64,000 nt of DNA from a virus. The DNA lies in the IMG/VR virus record IMGVR_UViG_3300045738_002037, positions 92,697 to 156,696 of that record; one strand, given 5' to 3'. The notes below the pieces were generated by a model, which was not told the DNA's origin, did no database searches, and worked only from the letters and a program-made list of their open reading frames with translations. Of the stretch, positions 6,501-62,392 are shown one piece after another. Each line of letters begins with the position of its first letter. Positions within the stretch are counted from its first letter, which is position 1. A program made the position numbers and the translations under genes.

Positions 6501-9500
6501 GATGTTACCGGCGTTCCCGAAATTCCGTTCCAAGGAGGATCACTCCTACGAGCATCAATTGACACATCATAATCAAACCCACCATCTCCTGTCAGATGTG
6601 CATTTTTAATCAACTCATTATCATTTAAATAGATAGCAATCGTTTCAGCCGACTGGCTTCTTACATACAATAAACCTGTAAAATCTGTACCGTCATGGCT
6701 ATACTCGTTGCCGCCTTCTAAATTAGATAATCTATTTTTCCTATAAGCCTTCGTGAAAAGACCAGGAACAACTATATTTCCAAGCATGGCAAGTTGTGGT
6801 CCAGACAAGCCTGCGCCAGAAACCGATGCCGCATGGAACTGCGGATTATAAATAATAGAATTAACACATATTGCGCTATTGGCCATTTGACCCTGCGCAC
6901 GGGCTGACGTATTATCGAATGGCCCAGCGACTCCAATGTGGGCATACAAACACCTTTTAACCAATATATGATTTGACCCAGTTTCCGCGTCCGCTGCTGA
7001 CATTAATAAACCCGGTGCCCCGGTCGGGGAACTCAATCCTTCAGAAATTATGCAATTCTGGAACGTTATATAACGACATGTTGAACCCGCAACGGTCGAA
7101 GGCTGTATTTTAGCACAAGCTTGAAGGCCCCATGACAGTGAACAATGGTCAATCAAAATATTTTCTATAGTAGGGTCTGGGCCATGAGCAATAACCCCCA
7201 ACGCTACGCCTTGGCCGGTGGCTTCAATCCCAGTAGATGCTTTATCATGGTCCCCGTGCCTAATATAAATATTTCTAATTAAAACATTAGATGCTCTAAC
7301 AAGCAGCGCAGTTCCAATTATCGTAATGCCGGGGTCTGGAGCAGTTTCACCGGCGACAACACAATTTGGAATGTCAATATTGATCGGCAGGATTACGTCC
7401 CTGCCCGCACTTTCTCCTTGTAATTCATCGGCATTCCTAAAATCAATGACGCCGCCAACTTCAAACACAATTATTCTTGGCCCTTGAGTCGTTAATGCTT
7501 CATATAGCGATCCCGGCCCTGTTGGCGATAAGGTAGTCACTTTCAGAACATTAACATCGCTGACATCAGAAAATTCAGTTGAAATATTACCTTCGGGTTC
7601 AGGCAATACCACTGCTGGTTTACCACCTGACCCAGGAACCCCCTTGGTCCACGCATTCGTTCTAGTGTGCGTTAACCGCACCATGCCGACATTCGGATCT
7701 TCTACATTGTAAGCAACAATTTCATCTCTATATAAACCACCAGTTATGTTAATAGTGTTGTCGGCATTATATTCTCTATCCGGGCCATAGGCTACAAACG
7801 CATACGCGGCGTGAAGTGTGCTAAAATCTCTCCTACCGCCAGACCGCAGTCTAATCGGATTTTGCAAACCGGTTATATCGTAAATTTTAGCTTCGTATTG
7901 TTGAGACTCAAATTTAACACTCGTTGGATTAGACAATGCCGCCCAATTGTCGGGACAACTCCAAAAACCTTTCCTTGGATTTATTTCATAGCTAACGCGA
8001 TCTTCAAATTCACTACTTTTAGTACAATTAAGAACAACTATACGACCAATTCTACCATTAGGATAAATATCATCTTTGCTATCATATAATGGTATAACAC
8101 CGCCAGCAATATGGCGTAAAAGATCAGCATCTTGCAATTGGACATCAAAAGCTGGCATCACAACTTTAGCTAATGCCACACCCGTGGCTGTGGCCGGTGG
8201 GCATACTTGTAACGATAAGATCACGCTGCCATCGCCGCCAAAACCAAATCGCTGGATATGATCCCCTTTGGCTATATCGGCAGTCCTTTCATAGGCCATG
8301 TGGTTAGCAACATAAACATACTGATTGTCTAAATCTAAAATAATATCATTGGGTGATTGTGGGCCAAGGCTATAATGATAATTAAATAGAACCCCGCGAG
8401 GAAGACGAGAACCTACCGTAGAGACATCAGACCCATCAAAGTCTAATTTTAATATTTTCGCAGTTCCATGTTCAGGGTACCGATTGTCGTTGGTTCGCGG
8501 CGGAATTGTCTCTACGGTACTAAGATAAATATGTTGATTTTTAACATCCAGATCAATGCCTCTTACATTATCGATCCCAGTTAAACCATCACGCAATATG
8601 ACCTTGCTGCTTCCACTAAGATTAGCACGGCGCAATCGGCCAGGATAAGGACCATCGGCATCAGCTGTGGCGTATTCAGTCCAATACATATGCCCATTTT
8701 CAAGATCCAGAGCAAGCCTCGATGGGCGATATAGTCCCAAATGCTCAAGCCGACTGGCACCACCATCAACTAACGGATGACCACTAGATCGCTTTGCCCG
8801 CCAGTTGCTGCTCGCTCCTACGTGGACATTTTTCACCGTTATACCAACATCTAATTGTTGAACTAAATCATGGTATGCGCTTCCAGTCTTATGGTTGGCA
8901 AAGTCAGAGTGATGGCCGCCAAGTATTACCAATCTTTTATGGCCCAGTGCCAGCCAATCCTTAAGACCACTTATATGATCTGAAGATAACGGAGTATTAC
9001 CCCATGGGTCTATGAACAACAAATCAATGCTGGCCGGAATTGGCCAAGAGAACACTTTTGTTTGACTGCCCGTCATATTCGGGGCAAATGAGTGAGATTT
9101 TCTATATGCCTCGTACCCAGGGTCACCATAAGAATAATCGAATACCCCAGGACCGTCTTTTACAGGGTCACGTGCAACAGGTGCACCAAAATATCTTAAT
9201 ATGGTTCCTTCATAAACATCATGCTTCCTAGTTTCTCCAGAAGCTGTATCGGCGGACGTGTAAGGAGGGTAGGGGACCCGGTCAACGACGCCTATGCTGT
9301 CATATGCCGGAGCATCATGGGGACGACGCTCACAAACAGGATGTAAATTACGTAAGAATTTTTGGTTGTCAATGTCAAAACCAAAATATCCAGAATCTGC
9401 GATATATTTATCAAGAGCATGATTATTATTAAAACTGCAAGGTGATTGTGACGGATAATAATATTGCCCATTCCGGATGCACCGGTTTTGGCAATCTCGC

Positions 9501-12500: not shown

Positions 12501-15500
12501 TTCTGACCATCAATATAGTCTTCTGAAATTCCCTGTATCCGTGAATGCCCATAATTATCAATAACACAGAAATCACTTGGCATCCATTTAATAGATTTAG
12601 GATCTAAATCATGGCCAGTCAGAAATCCATCTGAACCATCAACATCGTGCTGAAATGCAGCTTCAAGTGCTAAAAGCGGTTCATAATCAAACACTGTGCC
12701 GTCAATGTCGCCGGAATACGCTCCCGGCGGAAGGTTATCTTCAAGAGATCTAACCAATAAACCTTTGGTGTTAGTGTTATCCTTGCCAGGTCCAGAGCCT
12801 TCTTCTATCTTTTTAACTGCTTTTTGCGGGCCAGCGCCATCATAAACAATAACCCCGCCCTCAGCAGTATCATCGGCAAGATAAGCTCGGAATTTTAAAT
12901 CGTATGGAAATATGCCGTCTTGCGTCGACGTTGATTCTTCTTTAAAGCTAATTTTTAATTCTGGGGACCATGGGCTATTTCCCATAGTGTTATAAACTAT
13001 ACTAGCTAAATCGCTAATATATTCATTGTCTGGATCATCAGCAAGATTAAACGGCGAAGTACCGTCAAAATGCTGATGTAACGACGGAGGCACGCCGTTA
13101 ACGCTACCCCATTCCGTATCCGTCCGACTGGGTTGCCGTTTCCTTGCATCAGGGTTAGTATAATGGTCTTTGCCCCATCCCATACTATGGAACGATTTTG
13201 AATTATAAAAACCTGGAGTAAGCAGAGCCTGGTTTCCTGCCGCTTGATCGATCCAAAATAAATTAAAATAATGTAAATTATTCGAATATTTTGATGCCAA
13301 TTCTTTTATCAACGAAGTAACATTAACTTTCACACGTTTTAGGGCATACAGATGGCTCCCCTCGTATTCTTCTCCATCATAGCCATGATGATCTTCATCA
13401 CTTTTTCCAATAACAAATTCAGTAGTACGTTCTCTTTTAGAAATTAATTTGCTGTCATCGCCGGGTTCAACTATAATTCTAAGCCTGGGCGCAAAATCTT
13501 CACCTTTAAGCGAGTGTCGAGAGCCTACAATTGTCCTAAACGCAGCATCTCCATTTAATGTTTCTTCATCTGGCACCCACATATATGACAGAATGGATTT
13601 GCCATCGTCAAGTATTTCTTGAGTGACTTCAGTGACATCGCATTCAAAATTTCGAAATGCTCTTTCAGACCCTGTAAAATTAAAAGTCTTGTAAGCAGTT
13701 GTTCTATTTCTACTGAGAACCGAAACCTCATCGCTCAACGAAGATTCATAAGTGTCAACAAACGGATACGCTTTCACATTAGACCCACTACTCAATTCGC
13801 CATATAATTTGCCATATACATTTTGGTCGCCGCCCTCTATGAATGTTTCATGGTCAGGATCGTAGTCATCTGCGCCATTTAATATTAAAACAGCACTTTT
13901 AATCTTTTTGCCGACCAAATCATCAGAGATTTCTGAACCATGAAACATAAAACCAACTGCTCGCGTTACTAACTGGCCAGAGAAAGCCGTTGGAATTGGG
14001 ATCCCGGAAGCACTAGCGCCTCCATGGGAAGTTACATCAGGATATTTTCCAAATCGCAGTTGCCCATTATCGCCTGGAAAATCCCCAACTTCAATCAACC
14101 CATTGCCAACGCCGTCCATGCGCTGCTCGGCGTCCTGTTTACCAGTGGCTGACTGGTCCAATATTGGATCGACAAAACGAACTTTAAACTCATAGAGATA
14201 AGCGTTCTCTTCCGACCATTCATCAGGTTCATTTGAATCTTCTGCGTACCATTTGCCGTCAAAATCAACCTGCCCAGCATTATTAAGATGAGTATCAATT
14301 GAACCTTGCGTACTATTTTCGGCCAATCGATCAGGCGGCATATACATTATTAATTCTGCAGATTCAATCTCCCTACCGCCGATATCAAATTCGCTATGGA
14401 ATCTAAGACCGACATGTCTGTGTCCACCCATTACACGGGCAACTGAGCCTGATAGCTGTGGGTCCCTAGCCAAAGCATGTTCGTCGTAACCTTTATTGCC
14501 ATGCCCAAATTCTATTGCATCGTTTCTTACAGTAACGATTCCTCGCTGCTGGAAGCCCATGGCAATGGGGATATCGTGCTCGTTCGCTTGCCAATAATTT
14601 TGTGTATAGTAAATAATTTCTTCGGCTGCGTCCTCGGCACGATTCACTTTACATCTAGAGATTGTGTTATTATAACCCTTGCCGGGCAGATGCTCAAAAC
14701 CATGATCGTCAAATGACGCATCTTTAGGAAGCAACACTTCAATATCAGCAACAATTTCTGCCGCGTTAGGATAATACGTATTAACTGTTCGCCAAATTCT
14801 ATCGCCATGGTTTATGATCGCAGAATAACGACGGCCCGAAAGTATGTCGGTCGGATCATATTTGCCTAAAATTTCTGGCCATTCCGATGTACCATTGCCG
14901 ACATTTCCATATGGCGAATTAGCGGTGGCAATACAAAACGGCGATATGGTATTTGTTTGTTCCTGAGTGCGAGCAAGCAAAGAAGTTTTTAAGGTATTCG
15001 CGTCTGGAAATAAAAAATTTCTCGTCGAATGTAAAATAACTGAAACTGTTTGCCCCGCAGCAACAGGAACACCCTTGGGATATAAAGTATTGATTAGATC
15101 TAATGAAACCCATTGGCCATCGCCGGTCACATTCACGTCGATATGGAAAGAAGCTAAACTCGCCCCAGCCGCAGATAGATCATCGCCGTCGATTATCTCC
15201 ACAGACATTGTGCCCGACAGCGATTGCTCGCACGTGGGATCCCATCCAGCGGACCTCGACGTCCCACGCTGCCATAACGAACCTACGTCGGACGCGTGAT
15301 CAGTAGAAATACGTATTGCGTCTGCAAAAACCGGAACTCTCATCTCCGTTTCAGGAAAGACCACCAATCCTTCATGCTGGTACATTATTACTTCAATTGA
15401 CTGACCTTCTTCTACAGTAAGGATACCGTCCGGATTTGGGGTAGAAGCTAAAATTTCCCATGTAGCACTTGTTATCAAAACAAGACCAGGTGGTGGCACA

Positions 15501-18500
15501 CTCCACGGATTGGCGGTTTCATTTAGAGCGGGGTCGTACTCGGATACGGTCTTACCAGATGGCGCTCGAGCTTTAAATGAATTGGGACTGACACTTTGAT
15601 CGACGTATGCATCATAACGACTGCCCACCGGAACATCGTCAGCACTTAGCAATTGATAAGTGAATTTCACGTTGTCATGGCCAGGGACGCTGCCAAGCTG
15701 GTTTCCGTAGCCGCTGCCGCCTCCAGGCATCACAATCGACGGCCATGTGGCAGATATTTGATAATCACCAGCTGGCAGATCACGAAATTTCCAAGTCGCT
15801 GTTAATAGGTCTGGCCCATGTATCGATGGCATATCCTCTGAAGAAAAAGCAATCTCATAGGACCCACCCCAGACTGAGTTTGGATTGCCGCCTTTTCTCC
15901 AATCGACGTCGTCATGCATAATATAGCTCTGATAGCCCCCGCCGTGGGGCATCCTGAGAAATTCTGTCTTCTTTCCTGCGATCCGGGAAGTATAATTCTC
16001 GTCGTAATTGTCAATTATATATGTGTTAACTGTAGGAAGGCGACGCGGGTCAGGGCTTTTTCCATACAAATAAACTTCAAACTTTGAAAAATATCCACTA
16101 TTGTCAAATCTTATTGTCTGACCTATTCTATCCGCGAACCGGCCCGGTAGTGTCGGTTGTGCTACGGAGCTAAAAATAGGAGAATCATTTTGAAGATATG
16201 GAGGATATATTGTCGCTAATGTAGTGTCAGTGTTAAGTTCACTATTCCAAATAATTTGCGGGCTGGACATAGCCCCATAAGGATGCGTTTGTTCCTCAAT
16301 AAGCTGCTTTTGATCTATCACAGAAGTTGAAATATTATCTAATAAGGTTAATTCAAGCGGTATGTGCTCACATAATAACAATGTGCCGTTCGAATTAAAT
16401 GAACTATAAACCGACGTCTTGTGGGTATTATATTGTTTAAACGCTAATTTAGCTTTTGGTATATCGTTATCATCATGAACTCTTACTCCAGTCCCAGAAT
16501 TCTTGCTGATTCTTTTAACTGGAACTTTAGTAACAGGGTCTAAACCGGATTCTAAAAAATCACCTGAATATTTGACATCCGGCAGATCCATACTAGGAAT
16601 CGTACCAACATAGTCATATACTGCGCTTTTTAATTGTTTTGGAACAGTCCACTTAGAAGCAGGGCCACCACTAGGAGGGTCATCTGAATCTCCAGACAAC
16701 TGACCGATAAATAGATCACCGCTTGGCCCAAGTGGAATTGGCAACAATGTTTCAGAATCATACGTTCTTGACGTTCCACTATATGACGGATAAGTCACAA
16801 GCACGTCAGACGTCGCTGACAAAGTTTGACCATTTTGATCACGTCTATATCCAACTTCAAATCGTTTTACATATCCTGTTCCATTTACTATATCATTTTT
16901 AATGCGGTCATCATCCGTATCGCCACTAGAATAAGTTTTAGACGATGTATTAAACGACGATCTGGACGAATTCATTCCGACATTATCTAAAATGGTTCTA
17001 TAATCATTAGACTTCATCGCCGTAGAACTGATTAAATCTAAATCACTTTTAACAACCCAATTTGCCGCATCATCATAAGATGTTACAAACGATGCGCCAG
17101 TTATATTAAATGGTCCAGACCCATTGCCGTCATCCCAAATATGAGCATCAAAACTTACATCTGCGTCATATCCGCCACTAGAATCCGGTACAGGAGAACC
17201 GGGGCGCGGAACAAGATAATCATTTGAAATTAATTCATTGTCTTCTAAATAAACCGCCACTCCATCTTTAGCGCCAGCCCCATCTTTCTTATACACAAAA
17301 AATAGCCCAGTAAAATTCGTGTATGGCGGTTGTCCTTGTGTGGAACCAGTAAGAGCAGTCGGCGGTTCATTTTTAGCCCATGGTCTGGTGTTTCGACCAG
17401 GGACAACAATATTGCCTAACACAGAAACCTTGGGGCCTTCCGTGCCAGCGCCAATCACTTGGAATACTTGTTGCTGAGGATTATAAATGATGGAATTAGT
17501 ACATATAGCACTATTTTCTTTACCAACATAACCATTGGCAATATTAAAAGGATCTCTTTTATTAAAATGGGCAAATACACATTTTTTAATTTGAACTTTG
17601 TTTACACCAGAACCCATCGATAAACCAGCAGATTGACCTTGCGCGCCCTCTAAACCTTCCGCAATTATAGAATTTTGAATTGTTACATAGCTAACTTGCC
17701 CTTCTATATTGGCACTATAGTCCTTTGGTTCTATATCAACTATTTCATCAACACCCCACGACAACGAACAATGATCAATCAAAATATTTTTAAGAACATT
17801 GCCCCAAGGCTTATTGTGCCTATACTTAATTTGCAAAGCATCAGAAGATTCACCATTGGTCTTAGTTGACCGATGCCAGCCGGATCTTATAGCAATATGT
17901 CTTAATAAAACATGGGGCGCTTCAATTGCTATAGACGCGCCGATTACAGTTATTCCAGGTTCAGGTGCAGTCTCGCCAGCAACAACGCAATTTGGTTCCG
18001 TAACGACCATGTTTAACATACGCTTATAAACGTTAGGCTGAGGATTAATCCTAGTGCTTTTTCTAAGATCAATAATACCGCCTACTTCAAACACAATAAT
18101 TCTTTCACCAGGAGTCGATAAGGCATGGTGAAGAGTTATGTCGCCTTCTACATAATCCGGATCAGTATCATCTGCCGCTAGAGAATTAACTTTTATGACT
18201 TTAACACTATCAGAATCTGAATTATCTGGCGAAAATTCACCGCTAATAACTAGTTCTGCGTCTGAAAAGCGGATTTCATTATCACTAATATTGCCGCCAC
18301 TGTATCCAAATAATAATATATGATGGTCTATTGTGTCCGGCGCACTACCGCTAAATATTACTTTCCCAGGAGCAATAGCAGTCATCAATACGTTAAAAAA
18401 TTCAAATTCACTAGGCCCAACTGGCGATAAACCATCCACACCGCCAGCGTGCTCAATGCTTCCTTCTTTAAGATTGCCCGCTTGACCAAAGCCGTCATAC

Positions 18501-19363
18501 GGACTTACATGCCCAATGGTGCCTTTATCTTCTGTTAAATCCTTATTATAAGTGATATTTAAATAGGCAGCGAATATCCCAGATGAATAAGCAGGATTTT
18601 GGTCTTCTCGTAAATCTTGAACAAACGCGCGAATATAATATTCTTCGCCCACGTTTATATTAGATATAGGATTACCACTTGCGTCAGTAGCGGCAATCCT
18701 AATCTGCACTAATTCATGGCCAGACAACGGCGACACCACATTGCCAACAATAGGTACAATGTCTGGCATTGACATTGAAGACGGCACTTCAGGAACAGCG
18801 ACTGCTTCAACAACACCAGGGACCAATGGCTGATCCTCTGGAACAAGCTGCACCAACCTCTTTACATTATTATAATATTCTGTGCCAATAATAGAAACTA
18901 AATTGCCGGATAACACAGTCCCAAATGTACCGCCACTACTGTGATCCCATGCAAACAATTCCCCGCCGGGAGTTATATAATAATATTGCCTACCTATATT
19001 TCGACTATCATAGAACGGCGCTCCAGTAGAATTATATTCTACGAACCAATTGCCGGTTATCCATTTTTCATTTTCGCCACCAAAATTAAGATAATGATTA
19101 GCACTACCACTTAAAGCAAATTCGAATACAGAAGCATCAAAATCACCCAACACTAATACAGAATTCGCTTGCTTTCCTTGCGGCGAATCAGCTGGAAAAG
19201 CTTCGATCTCTTTTTGCGTAACACTGATTAATTCGACAAACGTGGACTGGCCTATTTCATCATTAAAACCAACATTGTCCCACACAGAATTGTCGGAACT
19301 TGGTTGCGCATTATTGCCGCTCTGACCAACGGCTTTCCGCACTGCATCAAATCCATCAGACAT
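3506..19363 (-). CDS. giant (~5,285 aa) multidomain protein, probable virion fibre/adhesin: two pectate-lyase-like beta-helices, YWTD beta-propeller repeats, Golvesin-like and cohesin-like modules, poly-Thr linkers
   Basis: Uninterrupted 15.9-kb ORF; ATG 19363 preferred over TTG 19381. PL1-like motifs occur twice (RIIVFEVGGxID, VAGETAPxPGIT, ILIDHCSLSWG, QNxIIxEGL). Also KMYWT/KMYWL/HMYWT repeats, ATWKFRDLPAGDYQISATWP and Thr-run linkers. Confidence 0.8.
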   Translation of the reverse strand: MSDGFDAVRKAVGQSGNNAQPSSDNSVWDNVGFNDEIGQSTFVELISVTQKEIEAFPADSPQGKQANSVLVLGDFDASVFEFALSGSANHYLNFGGENEKWITGNWFVEYNSTGAPFYDSRNIGRQYYYITPGGELFAWDHSSGGTFGTVLSGNLVSIIGTEYYNNVKRLVQLVPEDQPLVPGVVEAVAVPEVPSSMSMPDIVPIVGNVVSPLSGHELVQIRIAATDASGNPISNINVGEEYYIRAFVQDLREDQNPAYSSGIFAAYLNITYNKDLTEDKGTIGHVSPYDGFGQAGNLKEGSIEHAGGVDGLSPVGPSEFEFFNVLMTAIAPGKVIFSGSAPDTIDHHILLFGYSGGNISDNEIRFSDAELVISGEFSPDNSDSDSVKVIKVNSLAADDTDPDYVEGDITLHHALSTPGERIIVFEVGGIIDLRKSTRINPQPNVYKRMLNMVVTEPNCVVAGETAPEPGITVIGASIAIEAPHVLLRHIAIRSGWHRSTKTNGESSDALQIKYRHNKPWGNVLKNILIDHCSLSWGVDEIVDIEPKDYSANIEGQVSYVTIQNSIIAEGLEGAQGQSAGLSMGSGVNKVQIKKCVFAHFNKRDPFNIANGYVGKENSAICTNSIIYNPQQQVFQVIGAGTEGPKVSVLGNIVVPGRNTRPWAKNEPPTALTGSTQGQPPYTNFTGLFFVYKKDGAGAKDGVAVYLEDNELISNDYLVPRPGSPVPDSSGGYDADVSFDAHIWDDGNGSGPFNITGASFVTSYDDAANWVVKSDLDLISSTAMKSNDYRTILDNVGMNSSRSSFNTSSKTYSSGDTDDDRIKNDIVNGTGYVKRFEVGYRRDQNGQTLSATSDVLVTYPSYSGTSRTYDSETLLPIPLGPSGDLFIGQLSGDSDDPPSGGPASKWTVPKQLKSAVYDYVGTIPSMDLPDVKYSGDFLESGLDPVTKVPVKRISKNSGTGVRVHDDNDIPKAKLAFKQYNTHKTSVYSSFNSNGTLLLCEHIPLELTLLDNISTSVIDQKQLIEEQTHPYGAMSSPQIIWNSELNTDTTLATIYPPYLQNDSPIFSSVAQPTLPGRFADRIGQTIRFDNSGYFSKFEVYLYGKSPDPRRLPTVNTYIIDNYDENYTSRIAGKKTEFLRMPHGGGYQSYIMHDDVDWRKGGNPNSVWGGSYEIAFSSEDMPSIHGPDLLTATWKFRDLPAGDYQISATWPSIVMPGGGSGYGNQLGSVPGHDNVKFTYQLLSADDVPVGSRYDAYVDQSVSPNSFKARAPSGKTVSEYDPALNETANPWSVPPPGLVLITSATWEILASTPNPDGILTVEEGQSIEVIMYQHEGLVVFPETEMRVPVFADAIRISTDHASDVGSLWQRGTSRSAGWDPTCEQSLSGTMSVEIIDGDDLSAAGASLASFHIDVNVTGDGQWVSLDLINTLYPKGVPVAAGQTVSVILHSTRNFLFPDANTLKTSLLARTQEQTNTISPFCIATANSPYGNVGNGTSEWPEILGKYDPTDILSGRRYSAIINHGDRIWRTVNTYYPNAAEIVADIEVLLPKDASFDDHGFEHLPGKGYNNTISRCKVNRAEDAAEEIIYYTQNYWQANEHDIPIAMGFQQRGIVTVRNDAIEFGHGNKGYDEHALARDPQLSGSVARVMGGHRHVGLRFHSEFDIGGREIESAELIMYMPPDRLAENSTQGSIDTHLNNAGQVDFDGKWYAEDSNEPDEWSEENAYLYEFKVRFVDPILDQSATGKQDAEQRMDGVGNGLIEVGDFPGDNGQLRFGKYPDVTSHGGASASGIPIPTAFSGQLVTRAVGFMFHGSEISDDLVGKKIKSAVLILNGADDYDPDHETFIEGGDQNVYGKLYGELSSGSNVKAYPFVDTYESSLSDEVSVLSRNRTTAYKTFNFTGSERAFRNFECDVTEVTQEILDDGKSILSYMWVPDEETLNGDAAFRTIVGSRHSLKGEDFAPRLRIIVEPGDDSKLISKRERTTEFVIGKSDEDHHGYDGEEYEGSHLYALKRVKVNVTSLIKELASKYSNNLHYFNLFWIDQAAGNQALLTPGFYNSKSFHSMGWGKDHYTNPDARKRQPSRTDTEWGSVNGVPPSLHQHFDGTSPFNLADDPDNEYISDLASIVYNTMGNSPWSPELKISFKEESTSTQDGIFPYDLKFRAYLADDTAEGGVIVYDGAGPQKAVKKIEEGSGPGKDNTNTKGLLVRSLEDNLPPGAYSGDIDGTVFDYEPLLALEAAFQHDVDGSDGFLTGHDLDPKSIKWMPSDFCVIDNYGHSRIQGISEDYIDGQNLTVGIDANDRRILKVIKLDTDGETPVKKRKRFPFYILNCASSVPVHKTVVLDNGESVERSYMAVIGTPYGSCDTVGGLRCDAAGGSTGSNDTWTDNVTNRPVTAHGAYNGDLWLYIINLNSILESTTSDYGEEVIAAFNLSGVNEREIYESYYNHPAFATSFITGIGGQDTGLWPTELFASVSDPGTIHVRQDIVTVDGTNYFVGPDEESLQFSQDGRHVLVKYAGVDVQGKSRDIWRMFDVGDFAYKATNPSWSRPFADDSRKPSVDRKPNVLVGQNEIQRFTVSWSNTSNASFRIFKRYKNHPDRTAIIPASVFRSAGGLTGNDRQNNYSSSKFEKYMERQFNNYSPAGLNYHRSTTDGNRVWAENPDACVVRFVSNVKARGKPETYRRSVGSKIVERGWPGRPDVYTVVFDVEWSGTKGNTPPAGTNQIIHYLAAYDRLRTVFGSRPARYMEPTGRVEIIQEGTYCNPHIWLNRAESKAFGYNCEPGQPRRTLIPLVAAVVAGVTVVDNLVGPIYRPGTSGNAVADYKDYGIRPHNFSYLDTGLLDGRGTDQGGHLLTDRGATRGVIPLNQISALSFAYGQKFLDITTAAPDQFLAIASDSWADVTIADSYDCTGLVRTTTTTTTTAVPDITVQKLYYVSNSDNNGLPNTIRRWPPERLELGKNKWLDAPNDEILVSDQDGATDIAIDNINQKMYWTIATSVQNSSIPNPAGAVPSVGKIMRADLDGTNVEDITPPGGRSINPHGIALDVVRGKMYWLEDHVDDSAARGEVRRANLDGSGEQLLTTTDPPLQSSKSLTLEEVPNYFTSKSAPTDNIISDIKTYNLGSSIESIVYSGALRLITGSRGSAKLTFPASVDLTNILVENVQSGPKALFSTGTQLSPLGYTYTATKTTFFPFKPEPNYHFAAVESLFYGIQDSTGSQLVGKQSWMPVNKVSEVVVMLDRQWLVQDIYRPPRSPVIGQYNTRLRYHIYKGYCSDAALAIAKRQMTAAAFRTYKRDCQNRCIRNGQYYYPSQSPCSFNNNHALDKYIADSGYFGFDIDNQKFLRNLHPVCERRPHDAPAYDSIGVVDRVPYPPYTSADTASGETRKHDVYEGTILRYFGAPVARDPVKDGPGVFDYSYGDPGYEAYRKSHSFAPNMTGSQTKVFSWPIPASIDLLFIDPWGNTPLSSDHISGLKDWLALGHKRLVILGGHHSDFANHKTGSAYHDLVQQLDVGITVKNVHVGASSNWRAKRSSGHPLVDGGASRLEHLGLYRPSRLALDLENGHMYWTEYATADADGPYPGRLRRANLSGSSKVILRDGLTGIDNVRGIDLDVKNQHIYLSTVETIPPRTNDNRYPEHGTAKILKLDFDGSDVSTVGSRLPRGVLFNYHYSLGPQSPNDIILDLDNQYVYVANHMAYERTADIAKGDHIQRFGFGGDGSVILSLQVCPPATATGVALAKVVMPAFDVQLQDADLLRHIAGGVIPLYDSKDDIYPNGRIGRIVVLNCTKSSEFEDRVSYEINPRKGFWSCPDNWAALSNPTSVKFESQQYEAKIYDITGLQNPIRLRSGGRRDFSTLHAAYAFVAYGPDREYNADNTINITGGLYRDEIVAYNVEDPNVGMVRLTHTRTNAWTKGVPGSGGKPAVVLPEPEGNISTEFSDVSDVNVLKVTTLSPTGPGSLYEALTTQGPRIIVFEVGGVIDFRNADELQGESAGRDVILPINIDIPNCVVAGETAPDPGITIIGTALLVRASNVLIRNIYIRHGDHDKASTGIEATGQGVALGVIAHGPDPTIENILIDHCSLSWGLQACAKIQPSTVAGSTCRYITFQNCIISEGLSSPTGAPGLLMSAADAETGSNHILVKRCLYAHIGVAGPFDNTSARAQGQMANSAICVNSIIYNPQFHAASVSGAGLSGPQLAMLGNIVVPGLFTKAYRKNRLSNLEGGNEYSHDGTDFTGLLYVRSQSAETIAIYLNDNELIKNAHLTGDGGFDYDVSIDARRSDPPWNGISGTPVTSFVNSYAATGLNDWLNKDTDLDLITSAVLKVDNYSILLNDVGANTSRSSFNGVAYSGGDSIDDRIKNELLNLTGGILLGLEQGSETKAGWEDAVGGYPTYDLVSRIYDPSTLDPVPIGPNGNHIVGKDGYDPSTDSFADPFYAKPNLIVSSDGTKLVYNSTWTGEGGTHVNAPYGPYVPGYHLLIDLVEAQLVGPVDGTTTTTTTMPPDSNSRNGIGVLETPVAEFSGQGDYLPFVCEVVNVILKPHADFFRDSPTETCSPAGSCLINPIVTTGSAADHNNDERMTVPGLVWSGLSGYNTLSNGTVVNNGIGPFYPNIIDPDDGKFVQSWGQIFAERELIIGFNGVDMNPGDNSGPHVDVNWNEVIAINKATLTLKFDNIQQQQFDLLPSDGIGTEITLYKDIHNYSPYGEPCAIDQFEISKVYPSPCRNPNHSFFAAEHFRRTISRSSDINPRQLPSTWAEDRDVRVTHDNKIDVCPEVFDGSCDRLNGLFVGIRRLSWSRASVGGANNIIAAVETIPLSDGGDILGEVVLIADTTFLMYESFSRGGQTGLSGLANNRENQQFMVNLYPECNPTVGASASVVNVVGYKSFAENDRNYPINMLRVFGSRNLFPAAQGLYVKGGHVGPISGTDSNGRDLAFAKLVMIDPLTVLSPDDVQNIKNWMLLGEGRRVVVVYEYEVADTSRARAILEALGTKMRPDPQDRVTNAGTWQARPISGHPIIDGIDPYDANDLAGRSIRLCDKISTVFYGGIVPIDFNNGNARPLLLGGIVCPNYPDCEDNPEAQDSAPRYNGTKLLSMSLELELEICDEIVPHTTTTSSTTTEEPDISTNASDGGVILGNISGSGFGSSCLPEALQTEICLDFVPPPPYDYPEKYVPDPKDFEEVIVEPCALVLTANKSVRLELERDLFDPNRTYEGSLATVKLLTRAKGYDVNKYAPYLRVGNRLRATSYDTVVATGMSIILVDKSMDVSRREGLILDRITSREILPDRMRWPDQT

Positions 19364-19416
19364 AAATATACCGTCTTTCAATAGTTTAAAATATAATGCT
19401 ACTAATAGATTTGAAT

Positions 19417-33720: not shown

Positions 33721-35478
33721 TTAACCTTCGTCTATTAAGGCTTCTTTAAACCAATCCGGAAGCATCTTATCGGCATCTCGCAAAAATTTGTATATCGCCT
33801 CGTCAATAATATAAGTCTTCGCCCAATCGTCAACACTTCTGACGCTACGGCCATATGATTGCACAAGCTTTAAAGCCGTCAACCATACGTAATATTTTCT
33901 ATCAACTTCAACCCTAGCAGCAAGTTGCTTATCATCAAAGCAATTAGCATATGGAATTTTACAAATAATCTGAAATCTACTTAAATCATCATATAAATCC
34001 ACACCTTCATGCATGGCTGGCGCTATAATAACACCATTGTGACTTTTAGCATGCTCTTCTAACATATACTTCTTGTTGTTATAGTAATCACGCTGAAAGA
34101 AAAATCGATTTCTAATATACGGATCGCATTTTTCCTTCAACAAGTTCGCTATTGCAAAATTGTGAGTGTGAACTATGCCGCGCTCCTCACTGTGTTCTGC
34201 CATTATGTCATTTACTGCGGCTACTAATTTGTCTCCCCATTCGCTATGCATCTTCTTTACACCACCAACCATTCTCGCAGCGGGCCTAATAAAAATCGGC
34301 CTATTTTCAACAGGAAATCTGTTCTTCATCCGGTAAGCAGCTATTTCATCCCTGTTCAATCCTAAAGACTTACACATCACACCGACATCAAGAACAGTAG
34401 CGCTCATCATGAGTATTCTATCAGCATACTTAAACAACAAACTATCAGCATAATTCTGAATGAAAATCGGTTTTAATGTTACTGACTTATGAGAAGGTTG
34501 GCCATATTCGCCGCCGGTTTCCTTATATTCCACTATCCAGTTGCTACCCGACTCTTCAACGTGATCTACAAACATTTGAAACTTATGGTGAAGCCTCTTA
34601 ATTTCATCTTCAAGAGCAGTATCTTCTGATTCACGAGCTTGCATGATAATCTGATTTAAGACATTTGGAATATCACAATCAGCATACCATTCGGCATACT
34701 TATAGGCATTATCATACTCTGGAATTTCAACACCATGTTTTTGCAATTGAACGTCGTTCAATGTTACTGACACAAAATCCAATAATTGCGGTTCTACATT
34801 ATGACATTCATCAATAATCAGCATGCCTCTTGGCTCATCAAACCTTTTCGTCATTTGAGTTTGATATAAAAAGCTTGAAAAATTCATAACCACATTGTGA
34901 TTATTAATAGCTTGATAAACCTGTTCATAATAAGGGCATGCGCTATATTGAGACCCAGCAGGTAATACTTCCAAATATCCCGCTACTGGCCCGCTTGGAG
35001 TAAAACAATCAAGACATTTATAACCTTGTTTCCGTTTTCTACAAAATCCGGCATCACAACTTGATCTTTCAGATAGTGCTTTAGATAATGACTTCTTAGT
35101 CATCAATTTTCTATCAATAAGCTTATCGCCCATTCTCTCATAAAACGTGCATGGATAAGCATTGCGGCCTTTTAATTCGGTAACATCGTCAAAGTCGCTA
35201 GCCAACTGATCTTGCAATATTTTAGTGATGGTTAAATAGTAAGCGTTTCTGGAAAGATTGGCCATCGCCATCCCTATAGGCGACTTGCCGCTGCCAGTCG
35301 GGCATTCTAAAATAACTAATTTTTTACCATCTAAAAATGCCTTTACCGCAAACTCTATAACTTCTTTTTGTCCATCCCGATAGTTTTCTTTTGGGAAACA
35401 ATCATCAATATGCGAAAGCGGGTCGTCGGCGTATCGATGATCCCAAAATTTCTGTCGAATTTCTGTCTTCACAAGCAT
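33721..35478 (-). CDS. DinG/XPD-family SF2 helicase
   Basis: Q motif YRDGQ, CPTGSGKS, LKGRNAYPC, Cys cluster with CPYY, IIDECH, MSAT, EGVD, LVQSYGRSVRS. Confidence 0.9.
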   Translation of the reverse strand: MLVKTEIRQKFWDHRYADDPLSHIDDCFPKENYRDGQKEVIEFAVKAFLDGKKLVILECPTGSGKSPIGMAMANLSRNAYYLTITKILQDQLASDFDDVTELKGRNAYPCTFYERMGDKLIDRKLMTKKSLSKALSERSSCDAGFCRKRKQGYKCLDCFTPSGPVAGYLEVLPAGSQYSACPYYEQVYQAINNHNVVMNFSSFLYQTQMTKRFDEPRGMLIIDECHNVEPQLLDFVSVTLNDVQLQKHGVEIPEYDNAYKYAEWYADCDIPNVLNQIIMQARESEDTALEDEIKRLHHKFQMFVDHVEESGSNWIVEYKETGGEYGQPSHKSVTLKPIFIQNYADSLLFKYADRILMMSATVLDVGVMCKSLGLNRDEIAAYRMKNRFPVENRPIFIRPAARMVGGVKKMHSEWGDKLVAAVNDIMAEHSEERGIVHTHNFAIANLLKEKCDPYIRNRFFFQRDYYNNKKYMLEEHAKSHNGVIIAPAMHEGVDLYDDLSRFQIICKIPYANCFDDKQLAARVEVDRKYYVWLTALKLVQSYGRSVRSVDDWAKTYIIDEAIYKFLRDADKMLPDWFKEALIDEG

Positions 35479-35538: not shown

Positions 35539-36633
35539 ATGTCAAATAAAATCATAATCGCGGCTGACACGCACTTCGGTGTACAAGGAAGACTTGACGA
35601 TATTTTATGGTCAGTCAGAGTAATAAGGGAATATTGCCGCCTGGCAGACATTAATACGGTGATAATAGCTGGCGATTTATTCCACGACAGAAAATCAATT
35701 GATATTGAAGTAATGAGTAAAACTTGTGATTTCTTCGAAGAAACACAAGAAAAATTTAACCAACAGTGGATTGCGTTCCCAGGCAACCACGATATGTTCT
35801 TGCGCCATTCGTGGGACATCAACAGCCTGCGCGCAATGAGCAAGCATATGACAATCATAGAAGATGTCAAAATACTAAAAATAAATGACACAAGATTTTG
35901 GATATTGCCTTTCATCACATATGAAAAATCTTATATGCGGGTATTGGATAAAATTAATGAACAATACCAAGAAGGAGATATCCTCCTTACCCATATTGGC
36001 GTAAAAGGAGCCGTATTAAACTCATGCTTTTTACTTAAAGATTGGTCAACGGTATCGTTCGAAGACAGTCCGTTTCATCGAGTTTATACTGGACATTTTC
36101 ACTGTCAACAACAAGTTGGAGAAAATGTATGGTACCCCGGCTCACTAATACCATTTAAATTCGATGAAGGAAACATTTCCCACGGTTTTTATGTTTATGA
36201 TCTAGACGAAGATTCTCATAAATTTATTAATATATGGAAAGCTGGAGCGAAATTCTTCCCAGACGAACCAGCACCACCACAATTTTTAACAATCACTGAT
36301 GACAGCATTGAGAAGATAACAAGTGAAGACGTATCTGGTAATCTTGTTAGAATAGCTCTATCACGCGATTACGCCCATAGCGACAAACAAGAATTTAAAG
36401 ATTATATAATGAACTTAGGAGCTAAAGCCGTCAGGTGGATGCAACTAAAAGAAAAACAAATTGACATAAAACCACAAGAAACAGCACTTAATAATAAAGA
36501 CCTTTTCGTAACGTATATCGAATCCGACGATAAAGGCACTAAGGAATTAAATTTAAAAATTCTAAAAAAATTAAATGAAGACGTTATGAAAGAAGGCGAT
36601 GAAAAATACGCCGTAGACAGCCAGAATTATTAA
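35539..36633 (+). CDS. Mre11/SbcD-like nuclease (T4 gp47-like)
   Basis: ADTHFG, AGDLFHDR, PGNHD, GHFH, YPGS metallophosphoesterase motifs; AGGAG SD. Confidence 0.92.
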   Translation: MSNKIIIAADTHFGVQGRLDDILWSVRVIREYCRLADINTVIIAGDLFHDRKSIDIEVMSKTCDFFEETQEKFNQQWIAFPGNHDMFLRHSWDINSLRAMSKHMTIIEDVKILKINDTRFWILPFITYEKSYMRVLDKINEQYQEGDILLTHIGVKGAVLNSCFLLKDWSTVSFEDSPFHRVYTGHFHCQQQVGENVWYPGSLIPFKFDEGNISHGFYVYDLDEDSHKFINIWKAGAKFFPDEPAPPQFLTITDDSIEKITSEDVSGNLVRIALSRDYAHSDKQEFKDYIMNLGAKAVRWMQLKEKQIDIKPQETALNNKDLFVTYIESDDKGTKELNLKILKKLNEDVMKEGDEKYAVDSQNY

Positions 36634-38596: not shown

Positions 38597-39028
38597 TCAA
38601 TTTCCATGAGTTATGCGTATATCCAACGGGGGTTCACCGGGGATCCATCCGTCATCGGTATACCAAGCGTGACCGGCCATGCCTTTGACCACAATGGCCC
38701 ATTCATTTTCATTATTAATTTCTATTTCATAAGTGTCGTCGATCCCCCAATGTTCGTTTTTAGGATCATCTATTGTTGTTATATAATCCAGCGACTCACC
38801 GTCGTCTATATATAATGTTCCAAGCTTGCCATGGCCCGCCGCAGTATATCCAGCTTCAACATTGTAATAATTGAGTGTGCCTGCGAGGTCGGCTTCCACC
38901 GTGTCGGCAAAGACGTTTTTCTCGAACTCATCGGCATCTTCAAGATCCTCATACTCATCGTCTAACGGATTAACTTCATCCGGATCTTCCGTTATCATCT
39001 TAGCTATTTGTTTAGGGTCAACATTCAT
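38597..39028 (-). CDS. tag-family protein (type B tag, NPLDDEYEDLEDADEF)
   Basis: Start reassigned to ATG 39028 (MNVDPKQIAKMITEDPD). Confidence 0.8.
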   Translation of the reverse strand: MNVDPKQIAKMITEDPDEVNPLDDEYEDLEDADEFEKNVFADTVEADLAGTLNYYNVEAGYTAAGHGKLGTLYIDDGESLDYITTIDDPKNEHWGIDDTYEIEINNENEWAIVVKGMAGHAWYTDDGWIPGEPPLDIRITHGN

Positions 39029-39041: not shown

Positions 39042-39362
39042 TTAATAATCCCAAGATCCTGTCCCACATGTCGGACACTCGATCATTCTTGTCAAATCCG
39101 TTTGCATAGCATCTTCTGGGTCAGACCAATTAAATGATTCATATCCTTCTACGTCGAATCGATCACTTTTATCCACACATTTATCACACCAAGGAGAATC
39201 GCATCTACAATAAAACATTTCCCCTGACCAATAGCTTTTAGCACAACCACTACAAAAATCATGTCCTTCCGGAACAAATGTATCTTCTATATTATCTAGC
39301 GGATTGATCTCATCCGGATCTTCCGAAATCATTCTGGCTATTTTTTTGGGGTCAATTTTCAT
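39042..39362 (-). CDS. tag-family protein with 8-Cys zinc-finger payload
   Basis: Start ATG 39362 (MKIDPKKIARMISEDPD); CSGC..CRC..CDKC..CPTC. Confidence 0.8.
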   Translation of the reverse strand: MKIDPKKIARMISEDPDEINPLDNIEDTFVPEGHDFCSGCAKSYWSGEMFYCRCDSPWCDKCVDKSDRFDVEGYESFNWSDPEDAMQTDLTRMIECPTCGTGSWDY

Positions 39363-39369: not shown

Positions 39370-39600
39370 CTAACTGCAATTCGGGCACTGTCTTGGAAAT
39401 TTATAAAAAAACTCTGGCGCAGCACTTCCACACTCATCGCACCAACTAGACCCACATCTCTGACAATGGTTCACGAAGTCCCGATGATATCCACAACCGA
39501 CACACTCTTCGCCATATATATCTATTATATTGTCTAACGGATTAACCTCATCCGGATCTTCCGTTATCATTCTAGCGATTTGTCTGGGATCAACAGTCAT
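39370..39600 (-). CDS. tag-family protein with 8-Cys zinc-finger payload
   Basis: Start ATG 39600 (MTVDPRQIARMITEDPD); CVGC..HCQRC..WCDEC..CPNC. Confidence 0.8.
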   Translation of the reverse strand: MTVDPRQIARMITEDPDEVNPLDNIIDIYGEECVGCGYHRDFVNHCQRCGSSWCDECGSAAPEFFYKFPRQCPNCS

Positions 39601-39604: not shown

Positions 39605-41263
39605 CTAGTCCGATTCATAAGGAGTGGGACGACGAATTCGATCAAGATCCTCTGGTTCCCAAAAATCTGGTCTATTTACCCAACTGTGGCTGCGCCTTGA
39701 AGCTGTTCTGGATGGCAGTCCCTTCGCCTTAGCACAATTTGGGCATTCGGTATGAACACCGTTTCCGTAATGATCATCAAAACTCAATCTCGTTTGCACC
39801 ACAGCATCCTTCGCGCAGTCACCGCACCACATTGTGTCGCAAAATTCGCAATATTGCCCAACACCCGATTCGCGAGTTAACCCTCCTTCAAACACCGGCG
39901 TCCCACATTTATTACATGGCCGACTGTCGCCGTAATGATCATCAAATTCATCGGCATCTTCAAGATCCGCATACTCATCATCTAACGGATTAACCTCATC
40001 CGGATCTTCCGTTATCATCTTAGCAATTTTATTGGGGTCGACGGCCATTTCATTATATTCTTCAGCACGCCACCTCGCCAAAGCTATTCTCTCCTGAGCG
40101 TACCCTCCCAGGTCCTGCACAGCATCCCATGCCTGACATTCATCGCAATCGCATGGACCCCATACGGGATGTTCCCCGTGGGGTCGATCAATTATATATT
40201 CATCTTCTATATTGTCTAACGGATTGACCTCATCCGGATCTTCCGATAGTAAAGACCCAGCTTTTCGATTTAGACTTTCTGTGTAGTTTTCACATTCCCA
40301 TTTTCCTTTATTGTCAAAGTGCCCACACATCTGAGGAATACACAAAACTGCTTCGACAAATTTTTCACCTACTTCTGGGCCATCCCATTTCCAACCAGTT
40401 CGAACTGCTGTCGCCAGCCAGCCATGACCGCGTTCATAAAATATGTGCAAGTTGCCGCTGAAAGATTTAAAATCTAAGCTTGGCCAACCCATGCGCTCCT
40501 CGCCCCATTCTTTGTTATGGAGTGTAGAACCGGGAGGACCTGCACACTCAACAACAATATGTAGGACGATCTCGCCTGCCCCACCTACCATTATTATCTC
40601 TTGGGGAACATCTCCTACATATTGGTGCCCAGGGAGACGATCTTCTGGAATTTCCCAAAAGTCGACTTGTACCCATCGACCATCACGGAAGATAGAAGAA
40701 TCTGAATCGGGTTTGACCTGAATAATGTACAACGTATTCAAGCAATTATCATAATCATTTTCTTCAAATTCATCGGCATCTTCAAGATTCGCATACTCAT
40801 CTGAGGACTCTAGTTGGGTGGGCCGTGGCGGAATATCTCCAGGTTGCCAGCTTTTATCACCCCTCGTTGGCAGATTGGGACAGCGTGGACAGGTAAGAAT
40901 GCGTTTACACCAATAGTGCCCGCGATTGGATAATGTTTGACGCCTGTCGTGGTATATTCTAAATGGAGGCTCTGTTGTCAAGCTAGGGTATCCCGGTCCT
41001 CCTATATCTTCTGGTGTTGACATACAATTTTCGCAATATGTGCTGCCACAATTCTCACACCGTAAGTTCAAATCTGTATACAGTAACGTCTCTCCGCGCC
41101 ACGCCACAGTGTACCACTCTTCACAATTCGAACACTGTGTTTTGTCTTTGTCATATTCAAATTCATCGGCATCTTCAAGATCCGAATATTCATCGTCCAA
41201 CGGATTGATCTCATCCGGATCTTCCGTTATCATCTTGGCAATTTTATTGGGGTCAACAGTCAT
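39605..41263 (-). CDS. four-module tag-family polyprotein
   Basis: 552 aa containing four full or partial tags, each followed by a different payload; modules 1 and 4 are 8-Cys zinc fingers. Confidence 0.85.
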   Translation of the reverse strand: MTVDPNKIAKMITEDPDEINPLDDEYSDLEDADEFEYDKDKTQCSNCEEWYTVAWRGETLLYTDLNLRCENCGSTYCENCMSTPEDIGGPGYPSLTTEPPFRIYHDRRQTLSNRGHYWCKRILTCPRCPNLPTRGDKSWQPGDIPPRPTQLESSDEYANLEDADEFEENDYDNCLNTLYIIQVKPDSDSSIFRDGRWVQVDFWEIPEDRLPGHQYVGDVPQEIIMVGGAGEIVLHIVVECAGPPGSTLHNKEWGEERMGWPSLDFKSFSGNLHIFYERGHGWLATAVRTGWKWDGPEVGEKFVEAVLCIPQMCGHFDNKGKWECENYTESLNRKAGSLLSEDPDEVNPLDNIEDEYIIDRPHGEHPVWGPCDCDECQAWDAVQDLGGYAQERIALARWRAEEYNEMAVDPNKIAKMITEDPDEVNPLDDEYADLEDADEFDDHYGDSRPCNKCGTPVFEGGLTRESGVGQYCEFCDTMWCGDCAKDAVVQTRLSFDDHYGNGVHTECPNCAKAKGLPSRTASRRSHSWVNRPDFWEPEDLDRIRRPTPYESD

Positions 41264-44951: not shown

Positions 44952-45315
44952 GATTATGGCTATTAGTTTATTGGTGACGAGTATAATTGGGCTGGTAGTT
45001 TTAACAACTCATTGTGTTATCATAACAATTAATTTAAACAAAGTTTTAAAATTACTAAAGAAATGTAATAATAAAAAACGAATAAATAAAATAATAAATT
45101 TATTGGAAGAATGTGATGAACGAGGACAATTTACATCGCCACGACAAAAAACAAAATATTCAGGGGCAACTGCGTCATCAAGTGAAAAACAATTCGTCAA
45201 GACTAAAGAAGTTGATGAATTACCGCCAGAAGTCATCGCGCCAAGCCTCAAAAATCCCCCAAGACCAACTGGAGGCTTCGGGTCTAGAGTGGATAAAGAT
45301 AAACGTGATTCATAA
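44944..45315 (+). CDS. membrane-anchored hypothetical protein
   Basis: N-terminal hydrophobic helix; overlaps both neighbours. Confidence 0.6.
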   Translation: MSEIMAISLLVTSIIGLVVLTTHCVIITINLNKVLKLLKKCNNKKRINKIINLLEECDERGQFTSPRQKTKYSGATASSSEKQFVKTKEVDELPPEVIAPSLKNPPRPTGGFGSRVDKDKRDS

Positions 45316-46903
45316 TTTTAGTAAAAAAACCATAGTTGATGAGGAAGAGCTAAAATTAATAAATCCGGGCACAGGCAGCACTGGAAGAACAGCCCATAAA
45401 CCTGTTACTACAAAAAGAGCAAACAATTTAGAAATTCCGACAAAACCGGCGACTTCTATACCGCATAAAGATCATATAGTAAAACCTATAACCGCCAAAA
45501 ATATAATAATTACTTCTAAGACGTCTAAAAATACGTCAGAGACAGTTGAAAAACATAAAACTGACAAAACAGAATTAATTATTCCAACGCCGATTAAAGC
45601 GATTGAATTAGAAGCACTTGAATCTGTAATAATTACTACTACTTCTACTACAACCACAAAACCAACAACATATAACGAATTTAAAAAAGTAGAAAATTTA
45701 GAAATCAGAGAAGTTTCTGACAATGCAAAAAGAATTGCAGTTAGAAATGCAAGTGACAACTATGATTGTAAAGTATATAAACTAGGTGACGTTTTTACAG
45801 GTAGGAGAGTATTGATGACTAACATTGGCATAGACGTCGGCACTATGAACATCGTCATAGCTTATAAAAACAGCGAAGGCGAGGTTGATTATCTATCCGA
45901 AGTAAATGGGTATTGGATATTCGAAAGAGCCACGCCATTTATTGAAAATATGTTAAACGACGCAAATAAAGTTCGGTCAGACGGGACTGAGCGGTCTGCT
46001 AAATGGATCAAAATGCCGGAAACCAATCAAATATGCGTTCTTGGCAAAGATGCTGAAGAATTCGCATATGCTAAAAATGACACTCTTTTAAGACCTATGG
46101 CCGAAGGTGGGATCGCAGCTGAAGAAGAAGCCATGACAGTATTGGCCAGCATTGTCCAAGGTCTTCTTGAAATGGCCGAAAATGAAGTTGGTAAATTTGA
46201 TAAAGAAGTAAAAATTGTTTATTGCACAACTGCTCCGGCTATTAATAAAGAATCTAACATTGATTACCATAAACGAGTAGTTGATATTATTATCAGCGGA
46301 TATGAAACTACGTCTAATATTGACATGAATACTATTAAAGAATCGCATGCCATCGTGGTTAATGATAGTCCTGATGGAACCGGCATCGGAATTTCATGGG
46401 GCGCAGGCACCGTAACTGTTAGTTATGTAAAATATGGCATTGAAATTTATTCTTTTAGCTGGGTCGGAGCTGGAGATTGGATTGACACTCAAGTCGCAAT
46501 GCGCCATGGTTATAATCCTGAAGCTTTAAAAACTAGGAAAAAGACAGCTAAAGAAACCCCAACCACAGTTGCAAAAAGAAAACTGCAAATTGATCTTAGC
46601 CCAAATATTGAAGCTAAAGACCGAATCGAAATGGATATTAAATTGCATTATGATGTGTTGATCAACCAAGTTATTGACGGTATTGTGCAAGGTTTTACAG
46701 AGCATGAATCAGAAGCTCGCATTGATGAAGCTATCAACATTTACATGGCTGGCGGAACATCGTCTCCGAATGGATTCGAACAACGTGTGGCAATATTATT
46801 CGAAGAAAGAGATCCACCGTTTGAAATAGCAGAAGTTAATAAATCAGCTAAACCTTTATATGCAGTAGCTGAAGGATGTTTAAAAGCAGCAGAAATGTTC
46901 TAA
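45305..46903 (+). CDS. actin-fold (MreB/ParM-like) ATPase; core domain starts at ATG 45815, with an in-frame low-complexity extension from GTG 45305
   Basis: Phosphate-1 IGIDVGT, connect-1 ESHA, phosphate-2 ISWGAGTV, adenosine motif MAGGTS, connect-2 AVAEGC; AGGAGAG SD before 45815. Confidence 0.8.
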   Translation: MIHNFSKKTIVDEEELKLINPGTGSTGRTAHKPVTTKRANNLEIPTKPATSIPHKDHIVKPITAKNIIITSKTSKNTSETVEKHKTDKTELIIPTPIKAIELEALESVIITTTSTTTTKPTTYNEFKKVENLEIREVSDNAKRIAVRNASDNYDCKVYKLGDVFTGRRVLMTNIGIDVGTMNIVIAYKNSEGEVDYLSEVNGYWIFERATPFIENMLNDANKVRSDGTERSAKWIKMPETNQICVLGKDAEEFAYAKNDTLLRPMAEGGIAAEEEAMTVLASIVQGLLEMAENEVGKFDKEVKIVYCTTAPAINKESNIDYHKRVVDIIISGYETTSNIDMNTIKESHAIVVNDSPDGTGIGISWGAGTVTVSYVKYGIEIYSFSWVGAGDWIDTQVAMRHGYNPEALKTRKKTAKETPTTVAKRKLQIDLSPNIEAKDRIEMDIKLHYDVLINQVIDGIVQGFTEHESEARIDEAINIYMAGGTSSPNGFEQRVAILFEERDPPFEIAEVNKSAKPLYAVAEGCLKAAEMF

Positions 46904-61861: not shown

Positions 61862-61935
<74 letters not shown>

Positions 61936-61951: not shown

Positions 61952-62392
61952 ATGACTATTGATCCCAAACAAATAGCTAAGATGATAACGGAAGACCCAG
62001 ATGAGATCAATCCGCTAGACAATATTAAAGATACGTATGGCTATCAATGCGATGTTTGCGAGAAAAAGAGAGATTTTCAAGAATCCTTGCCATGTGATAT
62101 CTGTCAGGACGTTTATGGCCTTATAGGACCAGAGGTTTCAAGAATTTGTAGTAGGTGTAACGACATCAAATACGAAAACGGCGTAGGAGAAGATAGCATG
62201 ATGTTTTGGGATTCGGAGATCAACGGATCCGACTGGTATGTGAACTTCAATGTGGGGGAGAGTTACCCCGGCAGAGGGCCAAATGTTGTTTGTCCTGGCT
62301 GTTTATCTAAAAGAAAAGTATGGCAGAATCCTCAAGCAAATCGTGCCGATCGCCGCTACAATCTATATGATCTTGACGGTAATTTAATATAA
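61952..62392 (+). CDS. tag-family protein with 8-Cys zinc-finger payload
   Basis: MTIDPKQIAKMITEDPDEINPLDNIKD, then CDVC..CDIC..CSRC..CPGC. Confidence 0.82.
   Translation: MTIDPKQIAKMITEDPDEINPLDNIKDTYGYQCDVCEKKRDFQESLPCDICQDVYGLIGPEVSRICSRCNDIKYENGVGEDSMMFWDSEINGSDWYVNFNVGESYPGRGPNVVCPGCLSKRKVWQNPQANRADRRYNLYDLDGNLI

Follow-up and report, generated by a model that had tools for sequence, protein, structure and literature searches.

How does a tailed phage come to encode four small modules, each preceded by all or part of the same leader, in a single reading frame, and what becomes of the product? The question is raised by a locus in the window, the 64-kb stretch of DNA analysed here, which forms the last 64 kb of a 156,696-bp phage contig. 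On its minus strand, at positions 39605-41263, 552 codons are open without interruption. The answer favoured here, to which a probability of about 0.58 is assigned, is that this open reading frame (ORF) is an in-frame chain of four small head-internal (‘ejection’) proteins that would be addressed to the head, packaged and cut by a gp21-type protease. The packaging, cleavage and injection of such tagged proteins are what we infer by analogy with phage T4.

Architecture of the reading frame and its gene family

A sequence-only reading had described the 552-aa ORF as a series of cassettes with repeated leaders, and the frame does contain two full and two partial leader copies, distributed among four modules and followed by a stop codon at 39605-39607. 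Leader 1 (aa 1-35; 41159-41263, minus strand, as for all features of this ORF) is composed of an N-terminal address half, the consensus site ITE14 and an acidic half ending LEDADEF. It precedes module 1, a Cys-rich finger (aa 44-128; 40880-41134), and then junction 1 (aa 149-166; 40766-40819), where QLE is followed by SS and the acidic motif, the partial acidic tag itself occupying aa 153-166. Domain 2 (aa 167-329; 40277-40765), for which no known family was matched, leads into junction 2 (aa 330-354; 40202-40276), formed by a spacer, the site LSE341 and a type-A acidic tag; the partial tag at this point (aa 337-354) corresponds to the second half of the leader with the type A ending. Module 3, a small Cys/His domain (aa 355-405; 40049-40201), is joined to a full internal leader containing the consensus site ITE419 (aa 406-440; 39944-40048), and module 4, an 8-Cys finger (aa 441-552; 39608-39943), completes the chain. 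The internal leader begins with its own Met at position 406, in agreement with the proposal that the last module keeps its Met and complete leader. The supposed likeness of the first and last modules is likewise real, in that module 1 (nine Cys) and module 4 (eight Cys) have one Cys pattern.

Three further tagged genes follow in tandem on the minus strand, at successive gaps of 4, 7 and 13 nt. The first (39370-39600), which starts 4 nt past the stop of the 552-aa ORF, and the second (39042-39362) each combine a type A leader with the same kind of 8-Cys domain. The third (38597-39028; orthologue L018:7072-7557 in G001) has a type B leader and a body without Cys, unrelated to the 8-Cys domain of its two neighbours. 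It had been claimed that these three genes carry the same units as the ORF. This is not the case: compared by BLASTP with every ORF in the genome, the four cargo bodies showed no paralogous copy and only weak zinc-finger likeness (E about 0.002). The tag is common to all three and the finger type to two, while the modules differ.

The leader of the 552-aa ORF also opens at least 10 genes of the contig. In nearly all of the 33 tagged ORFs recognized in five related contigs the leader ends in ITE, ISE, IAE, LNE or similar at residue 8-19, and two classes of address can be distinguished, a 14-residue leader of the DPKQIAKMI type and an 8-9-residue leader of the MKL type ending IxE. One tagged gene of G004 (L042) has a hybrid leader, with an MKL-type address and a DPDEVNP-type acidic half, which makes the two address classes interchangeable. 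The DNA of the leader copies is highly similar, with synonymous differences, and relatives with 45-52% GC retain the peptide motif, from which it follows that the peptide is what selection acts on. The bodies that follow the leaders are, by BLASTP, mutually unrelated. In both G000 and G004 the MCP gene is immediately followed by a further array of tagged genes, and in the latter (L042, 3669-4978, plus strand) two tagged genes stand directly downstream of a near-identical MCP gene.

Several neighbouring genes of the window may be described here in their own right. The islands of tagged genes are flanked by an SbcD-like nuclease subunit (35539-36633, plus strand; phrog_100, 1.1e-42) and by a DEAD_2/Helicase_C_2 helicase (33721-35478, minus strand; phrog_2488, 1.1e-103). 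A tRNA-Arg (TCT) at 61862-61935 (plus strand) lies 16 nt upstream of a leader-bearing Cys-rich gene at 61952-62392 (plus strand). A single ORF of 5291 codons (3506-19381, minus strand) has neither leader nor acidic motif. At 45113-46903 (plus strand) a gene product of 596 aa matches the Pfam family Volactin (PF25216, E = 1.4e-40) over its C-terminal 357 residues; Volactin is a family of actins named from haloarchaea, and judged by this match the jumbo phage has an actin-like gene.

The variable body of the tagged proteins is often a predicted two-zinc, 8-Cys finger. Bodies are domains of 50-165 residues with zinc-finger Cys spacing, and in the alignment of the 8-Cys domains (A5), modules 1 and 4 included, eight Cys are invariant, spaced as CxxC, gap, CxxC-x4-CxxC, gap, CxxC. 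Eight Cys with such spacing recall the FYVE, B-box and RING cross-brace fingers, but the scores are sub-threshold and the likeness is one of resemblance alone: in Pfam the domain reached 19.1 bits for FYVE (PF01363; threshold 27.8) and 17.4 bits for IBR (PF01485; threshold 24.3), its best PDB profile match had E = 9.6e-4, and structures of FYVE and B-box fingers matched weakly (E about 1e-3). Scans of the tagged proteins against Pfam and PHROG matched no family and returned just sub-threshold zinc-finger matches. The 552-aa ORF had no tblastn match among 50,697 phage records, a viral-contig search with this ORF and the neighbouring 700-aa protein found no related locus, and a literature search with the acidic motif string returned unrelated text alone. 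Structure prediction gave a mean pLDDT of 30.8 for domain 2 (AlphaFold2, from 3 sequences), and the ESM Atlas model of the whole protein was poor (pLDDT 0.36), with no usable neighbours.

Junction consensus, head protease and predicted cleavage

The junctions of the family follow one pattern, in which [I/L/V]-x-E is succeeded by S or D and then by an acidic motif similar to Y-x-G-L-E-D-A-D-E-F. Over the 45 acidic motifs counted in five contigs, P1 is Glu without exception (45/45), and P3 is I, V or L in 38, a number that includes the longer G000 leaders and is slightly favoured by the choice of anchor; the remaining seven junctions are non-canonical. An [LIV]xE site occurs within 12 residues upstream of the acidic motif in 73% of the 45 cases, vs 12% of control positions. 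The density of (L/I)xE is 0.0365 per residue in junction zones, defined as the 24 residues before an acidic motif, vs 0.0087 in the rest of the same proteins. The 552-aa ORF itself contains four (L/I)xE sites (ITE14, IPE207, LSE341 and ITE419), and all except IPE207 directly precede the DPDE of a tag. At the internal joins, LSE341 and ITE419 match the consensus and junction 1 presents QLE152.

The cleavage points named from the sequence alone have to be adjusted in the light of this pattern. Every junction of that proposal ends in Glu, but NYTE/S and EEYNE/M are off the family consensus, and the proposed QLE cut (QLE/SS), also Glu-ending, has no aliphatic P3 residue; the sites that match the consensus are instead ITE14/D, LSE341/D and ITE419/D. 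Cleavage at junction 1 is uncertain because QLE152 is followed by SS at a place where the orthologue in G001 (P0009) has LTE and then SS.

Resolution of the fusion by a Glu-specific head protease, as the sequence-only reading had proposed, is plausible, since the genome encodes a gp21-family protease and [LIV]xE is strongly enriched a short way before the acidic motif. A T4-type head module is present on the contig, consisting of large terminase, portal, an 1102-aa protein, the protease, a scaffold-like protein (241 aa, coiled-coil) and MCP. The prohead protease gene (L047:5834-6571, minus strand; Peptidase_S77 match at G000:C1:5960-6442) scores 61.7 bits with Peptidase_S77 (PF03420; cut-off 27) and 1.4e-40 with phrog_207. 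When aligned with gp21 of a T4-like coliphage it conserves His, Ser and Asp at the positions of the catalytic triad, within the motifs GE-x-x-HP, SSRG and DAV. Identity to T4-like gp21 is merely 25%, for which reason the specificity of the enzyme is one carried over from T4. The MCP is gp23-like, with at most 39% identity to anything in the phage collection and a best match in a 595-kb uncultured phage. Five of its (L/I)xE sites fall in the first 81 residues and one in the remaining 448, a distribution that would be expected of a gp23-like propeptide; it was used in place of an aligned cut because the N-terminal alignment with gp23 is unreliable near LTE/A. Between the portal and protease genes lies the 1102-aa protein (G000:C1:6583-9891, minus strand; L047:6583-9891), which matched no family; with 28 (L/I)xE sites and acidic stretches, it is a candidate for a large, heavily processed core or scaffold protein. 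By its sequence the phage is an uncultured jumbo phage of the T4 superfamily, and the CheckV completeness of the contig, 43%, implies that the genome is probably well above 300 kb.

Under the proposed mechanism, the tagged genes would form a fast-changing family in which each member consists of a short address ending (I/L/V)-x-Glu, an acidic motif and a variable body. The precursor would enter the prohead core by means of its N-terminal address and then be cut after Glu by the gp21-type prohead protease; each body would remain in the head, with a new N-terminus formed by the acidic motif. In the 552-aa ORF, cuts are predicted after E14, E341 and E419, yielding products of aa 15-341, 342-419 and 420-552, the first of which would split at E152 if QLE were also cut. 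Since the internal junctions keep both the cut-site consensus and the acidic motif, the fusion would still give separate modules.

A different fate of the product, unlikely in our judgement yet the best placed of the alternatives, is that it stays an uncleaved multidomain protein, in which [LIV]xE and the acidic motif are together one extended linear motif or a flexible linker, repeated before every domain in order, for instance, to bind a common partner. The acidic motif is conserved far beyond the needs of a cut site and is kept at every internal junction, as this explanation would have it, and several junctions are without the canonical P3 residue. On the other hand, the invariant P1 Glu and aliphatic P3 match the known rule of gp21 (PMC9026906), the N-terminal leaders match the T4 capsid-targeting sequence in length and ending in a genome that encodes a gp21-family protease, and the modules are taken to be fully functional as separate genes elsewhere, so that covalent linkage is not needed. 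The older internal junctions, which have lost the N-terminal half of the leader and kept xxE and the acidic motif, fit a scheme in which a chain has a single address but every module a cut site; they also show an independent role for the acidic motif.

For module 4, separation could be achieved at the level of translation if the retained start region were still used on the long mRNA, with initiation at Met406 in place of proteolysis. An AT-rich context, GAATATAATGAA, is kept upstream of the internal ATG and resembles that before the start of the ORF itself, GATATAAT, a Shine-Dalgarno sequence being absent at both starts. Such an origin of module 4, which is compatible with the proteolysis model, is nevertheless considered quite unlikely as an explanation of the locus: it applies to one of the three junctions only, and most junctions of the family have no Met. 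The ribosome-binding context TTATTGGAG accompanies some head genes and a 216-aa tagged gene and is absent from the 552-aa ORF; as to a common late-promoter motif, the upstream sequences were uninformative.

Fused and separate forms in related phages

Relatives were reached through back-translated motif patterns, and homologues of the modules were sought among 1.8 billion representative proteins, which returned separate small proteins for single modules. Module 1 stands alone in P0007, P0012 and P0015. Module 3 corresponds to the 77-aa P0004, whose stop follows directly on the C-terminal residues shared with the 552-aa ORF, and module 4 to the 120-aa product of L046:415-777, at about 70% identity. 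In P0002, a 487-aa protein encoded on an independent JGI contig, an N-terminal leader is immediately followed by domain 2, and the frame then runs past the same spacer and LSE junction into two Cys modules; in P0009 domain 2 is internal. The syntenic island of G001 encodes this two-module P0009 (finger and domain 2), a five-module protein of 497 aa and four single-module genes. A global alignment of the modular homologues stacked all the leaders on module 4, and the full-length alignment was unusable.

Chaining is also recurrent. Two to five acidic motifs are present in 10 of the 33 tagged ORFs, and each of the four large related contigs has ORFs with several modules. A three-module fusion is kept between G001 and G002 at 45% identity, the bodies having diverged around junction motifs that stay in register and are nearly invariant. 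The earlier claim that cassettes work either alone or in frame is well supported by these comparisons, given the separate forms of modules 1, 3 and 4, the N-terminal position of domain 2 in P0002 and the proportion of multi-module ORFs.

Two related genes show the unit in other settings. The tagged protein encoded by L043:4470-5333 (plus strand) consists of a Cys module and a near-identical second one. A partial leader (KKIA-K/R-MI) comes after each, the last of these forming the extreme C-terminus, just before the stop; the boundaries of the repeat unit are thus offset from those of the gene. In G003 (C1:48964-52737, plus strand), an ORF of 1257-1313 aa has three acidic motifs, all within residues 1-190, and some 1000 motif-free residues after them; the tag unit is therefore also joined to a very large protein.

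The sequence-only reading had suggested that orthologous loci be compared for stop codons at the junctions, and such a difference exists where module 3 meets module 4. L043 and the window scarcely differ in DNA as far as the last shared codons of module 3; there L043 stops, its stop codon overlapping the ATG of the next tagged gene (ATGA), and the window reads six more codons into Met406. Tandem tagged genes lie 4-13 nt apart or overlap by ATGA, so that loss of a stop codon would readily fuse neighbours, and this is the origin envisaged for the chains.

The same join bears on whether the chain is an artefact of assembly or sequencing, in which genes that are really separate were either joined into a chimera through the leader repeats or run together by an erroneous indel that abolished a stop codon. 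The copies of the leader are highly similar in DNA, the module 3-4 junction was seen in this contig alone among the relatives, and immediately beyond the stretch shared with P0004 a TGA is present in a different frame, so that a 1-nt indel at 40049-40066 would restore a stop. There is, however, no homopolymer at this join; junctions 1 and 2 recur in independent assemblies (P0009 of G001, and P0002), and multi-module ORFs are found in every large relative, as noted above. An artefact is accordingly regarded as very unlikely to account for the locus, and on these comparisons at least two of the three joins are biologically real.

The idea that the leader targets the proteins elsewhere (secretion, or a host compartment), or that the genes are RiPP-like multi-core precursors, which a conserved leader, hypervariable Cys-rich cores and multi-core chains superficially resemble in sequence pattern, is highly improbable, as the leader is strongly acidic and lacks a hydrophobic signal segment, the arrays of tagged genes lie next to the capsid operon, and bodies of domain size with zinc-finger Cys spacing are not short cores.

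Comparison with known systems and significance

The T4 internal proteins are the model for proteins injected ahead of phage DNA to disarm host defences, and the T4 capsid-targeting sequence has also been used to package foreign proteins. In that phage gp21 cuts after L/I-x-E (PMC9026906), and the ten N-terminal residues of the targeting sequence suffice to load unrelated internal proteins into heads (PMC3012670, PMC9026906). The tagged family resembles IPI, IPII, IPIII and Alt in placing a short leader ending (L/I)xE on unrelated, fast-evolving small proteins, and the MKL-type leaders of the clade (8-9 residues, ending IxE) match the T4 targeting sequence in length and ending. The genome, moreover, encodes a gp21-family protease together with gp20-, gp22- and gp23-like head genes. 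Homology of the tagged proteins to IPI, IPII, IPIII or Alt was not detected by PHROG, Pfam or tblastn (50,697 phage records). The differences from T4 are that the leader is bipartite and its long acidic motif would stay on the mature protein, that the cargo bodies are often 8-Cys fingers, and that several cargos are chained per ORF with internal consensus sites. To our knowledge, such chaining of cargo with internal cut sites has not been described for the T4 internal proteins.

Giant-phage proteases related to gp21 also cut packaged proteins after Glu, often at several sites in each (PMC5694885, PMC10052503, PMC9026906). Processing in phiKZ, 201phi2-1 and SPN3US (family S80, cleavage after S/A-x-E) is similar in being multi-site, Glu-specific and gp21-related, and its extra cuts mostly break long propeptides for removal. 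Here, in contrast, the sites delimit independent domains that are also encoded as genes of their own, and the P3 preference is for I/L/V rather than S/A. The polyproteins of RNA viruses and retroviruses likewise place several units between conserved protease consensus sites in one ORF; the present units differ in being accessory cargo, not core replication or structural proteins, cleavage here is putative, and the fused and split states interconvert among close relatives.

What was already known from T4 is a constant targeting leader, variable injected cargo and a Glu-specific prohead protease. New, on the sequence comparisons made here, are a bipartite leader with a conserved acidic handle that is common to a clade of uncultured jumbo phages, a zinc-finger cargo family, and a recurrent, conserved in-frame chaining of cargo with the cut-site consensus at the joins. 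A broader reading, held more tentatively and at somewhat less than even odds, is that an uncultured marine jumbo clade of the T4 superfamily loads exchangeable zinc-finger ejection proteins, routinely chained as polyproteins that the prohead protease would separate in the capsid; as a part of that reading, address, gp21-type cut site and acidic handle would form a portable three-part unit.

If the proposed processing is true, one address would carry several effectors in fixed stoichiometry, and a polyprotein strategy would be on record for the first time for cargo that a tailed phage packages. The consensus [I/L/V]-x-E, S/D and acidic motif could then predict packaged cargo in metagenomic phage genomes, and capsids might be loaded with several proteins per address on the same design. 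Zinc-finger proteins of phages, a large family, are in this way marked as candidate early-acting effectors, and the T4-type system would have a modular, polyprotein-like form in large uncultured phages.
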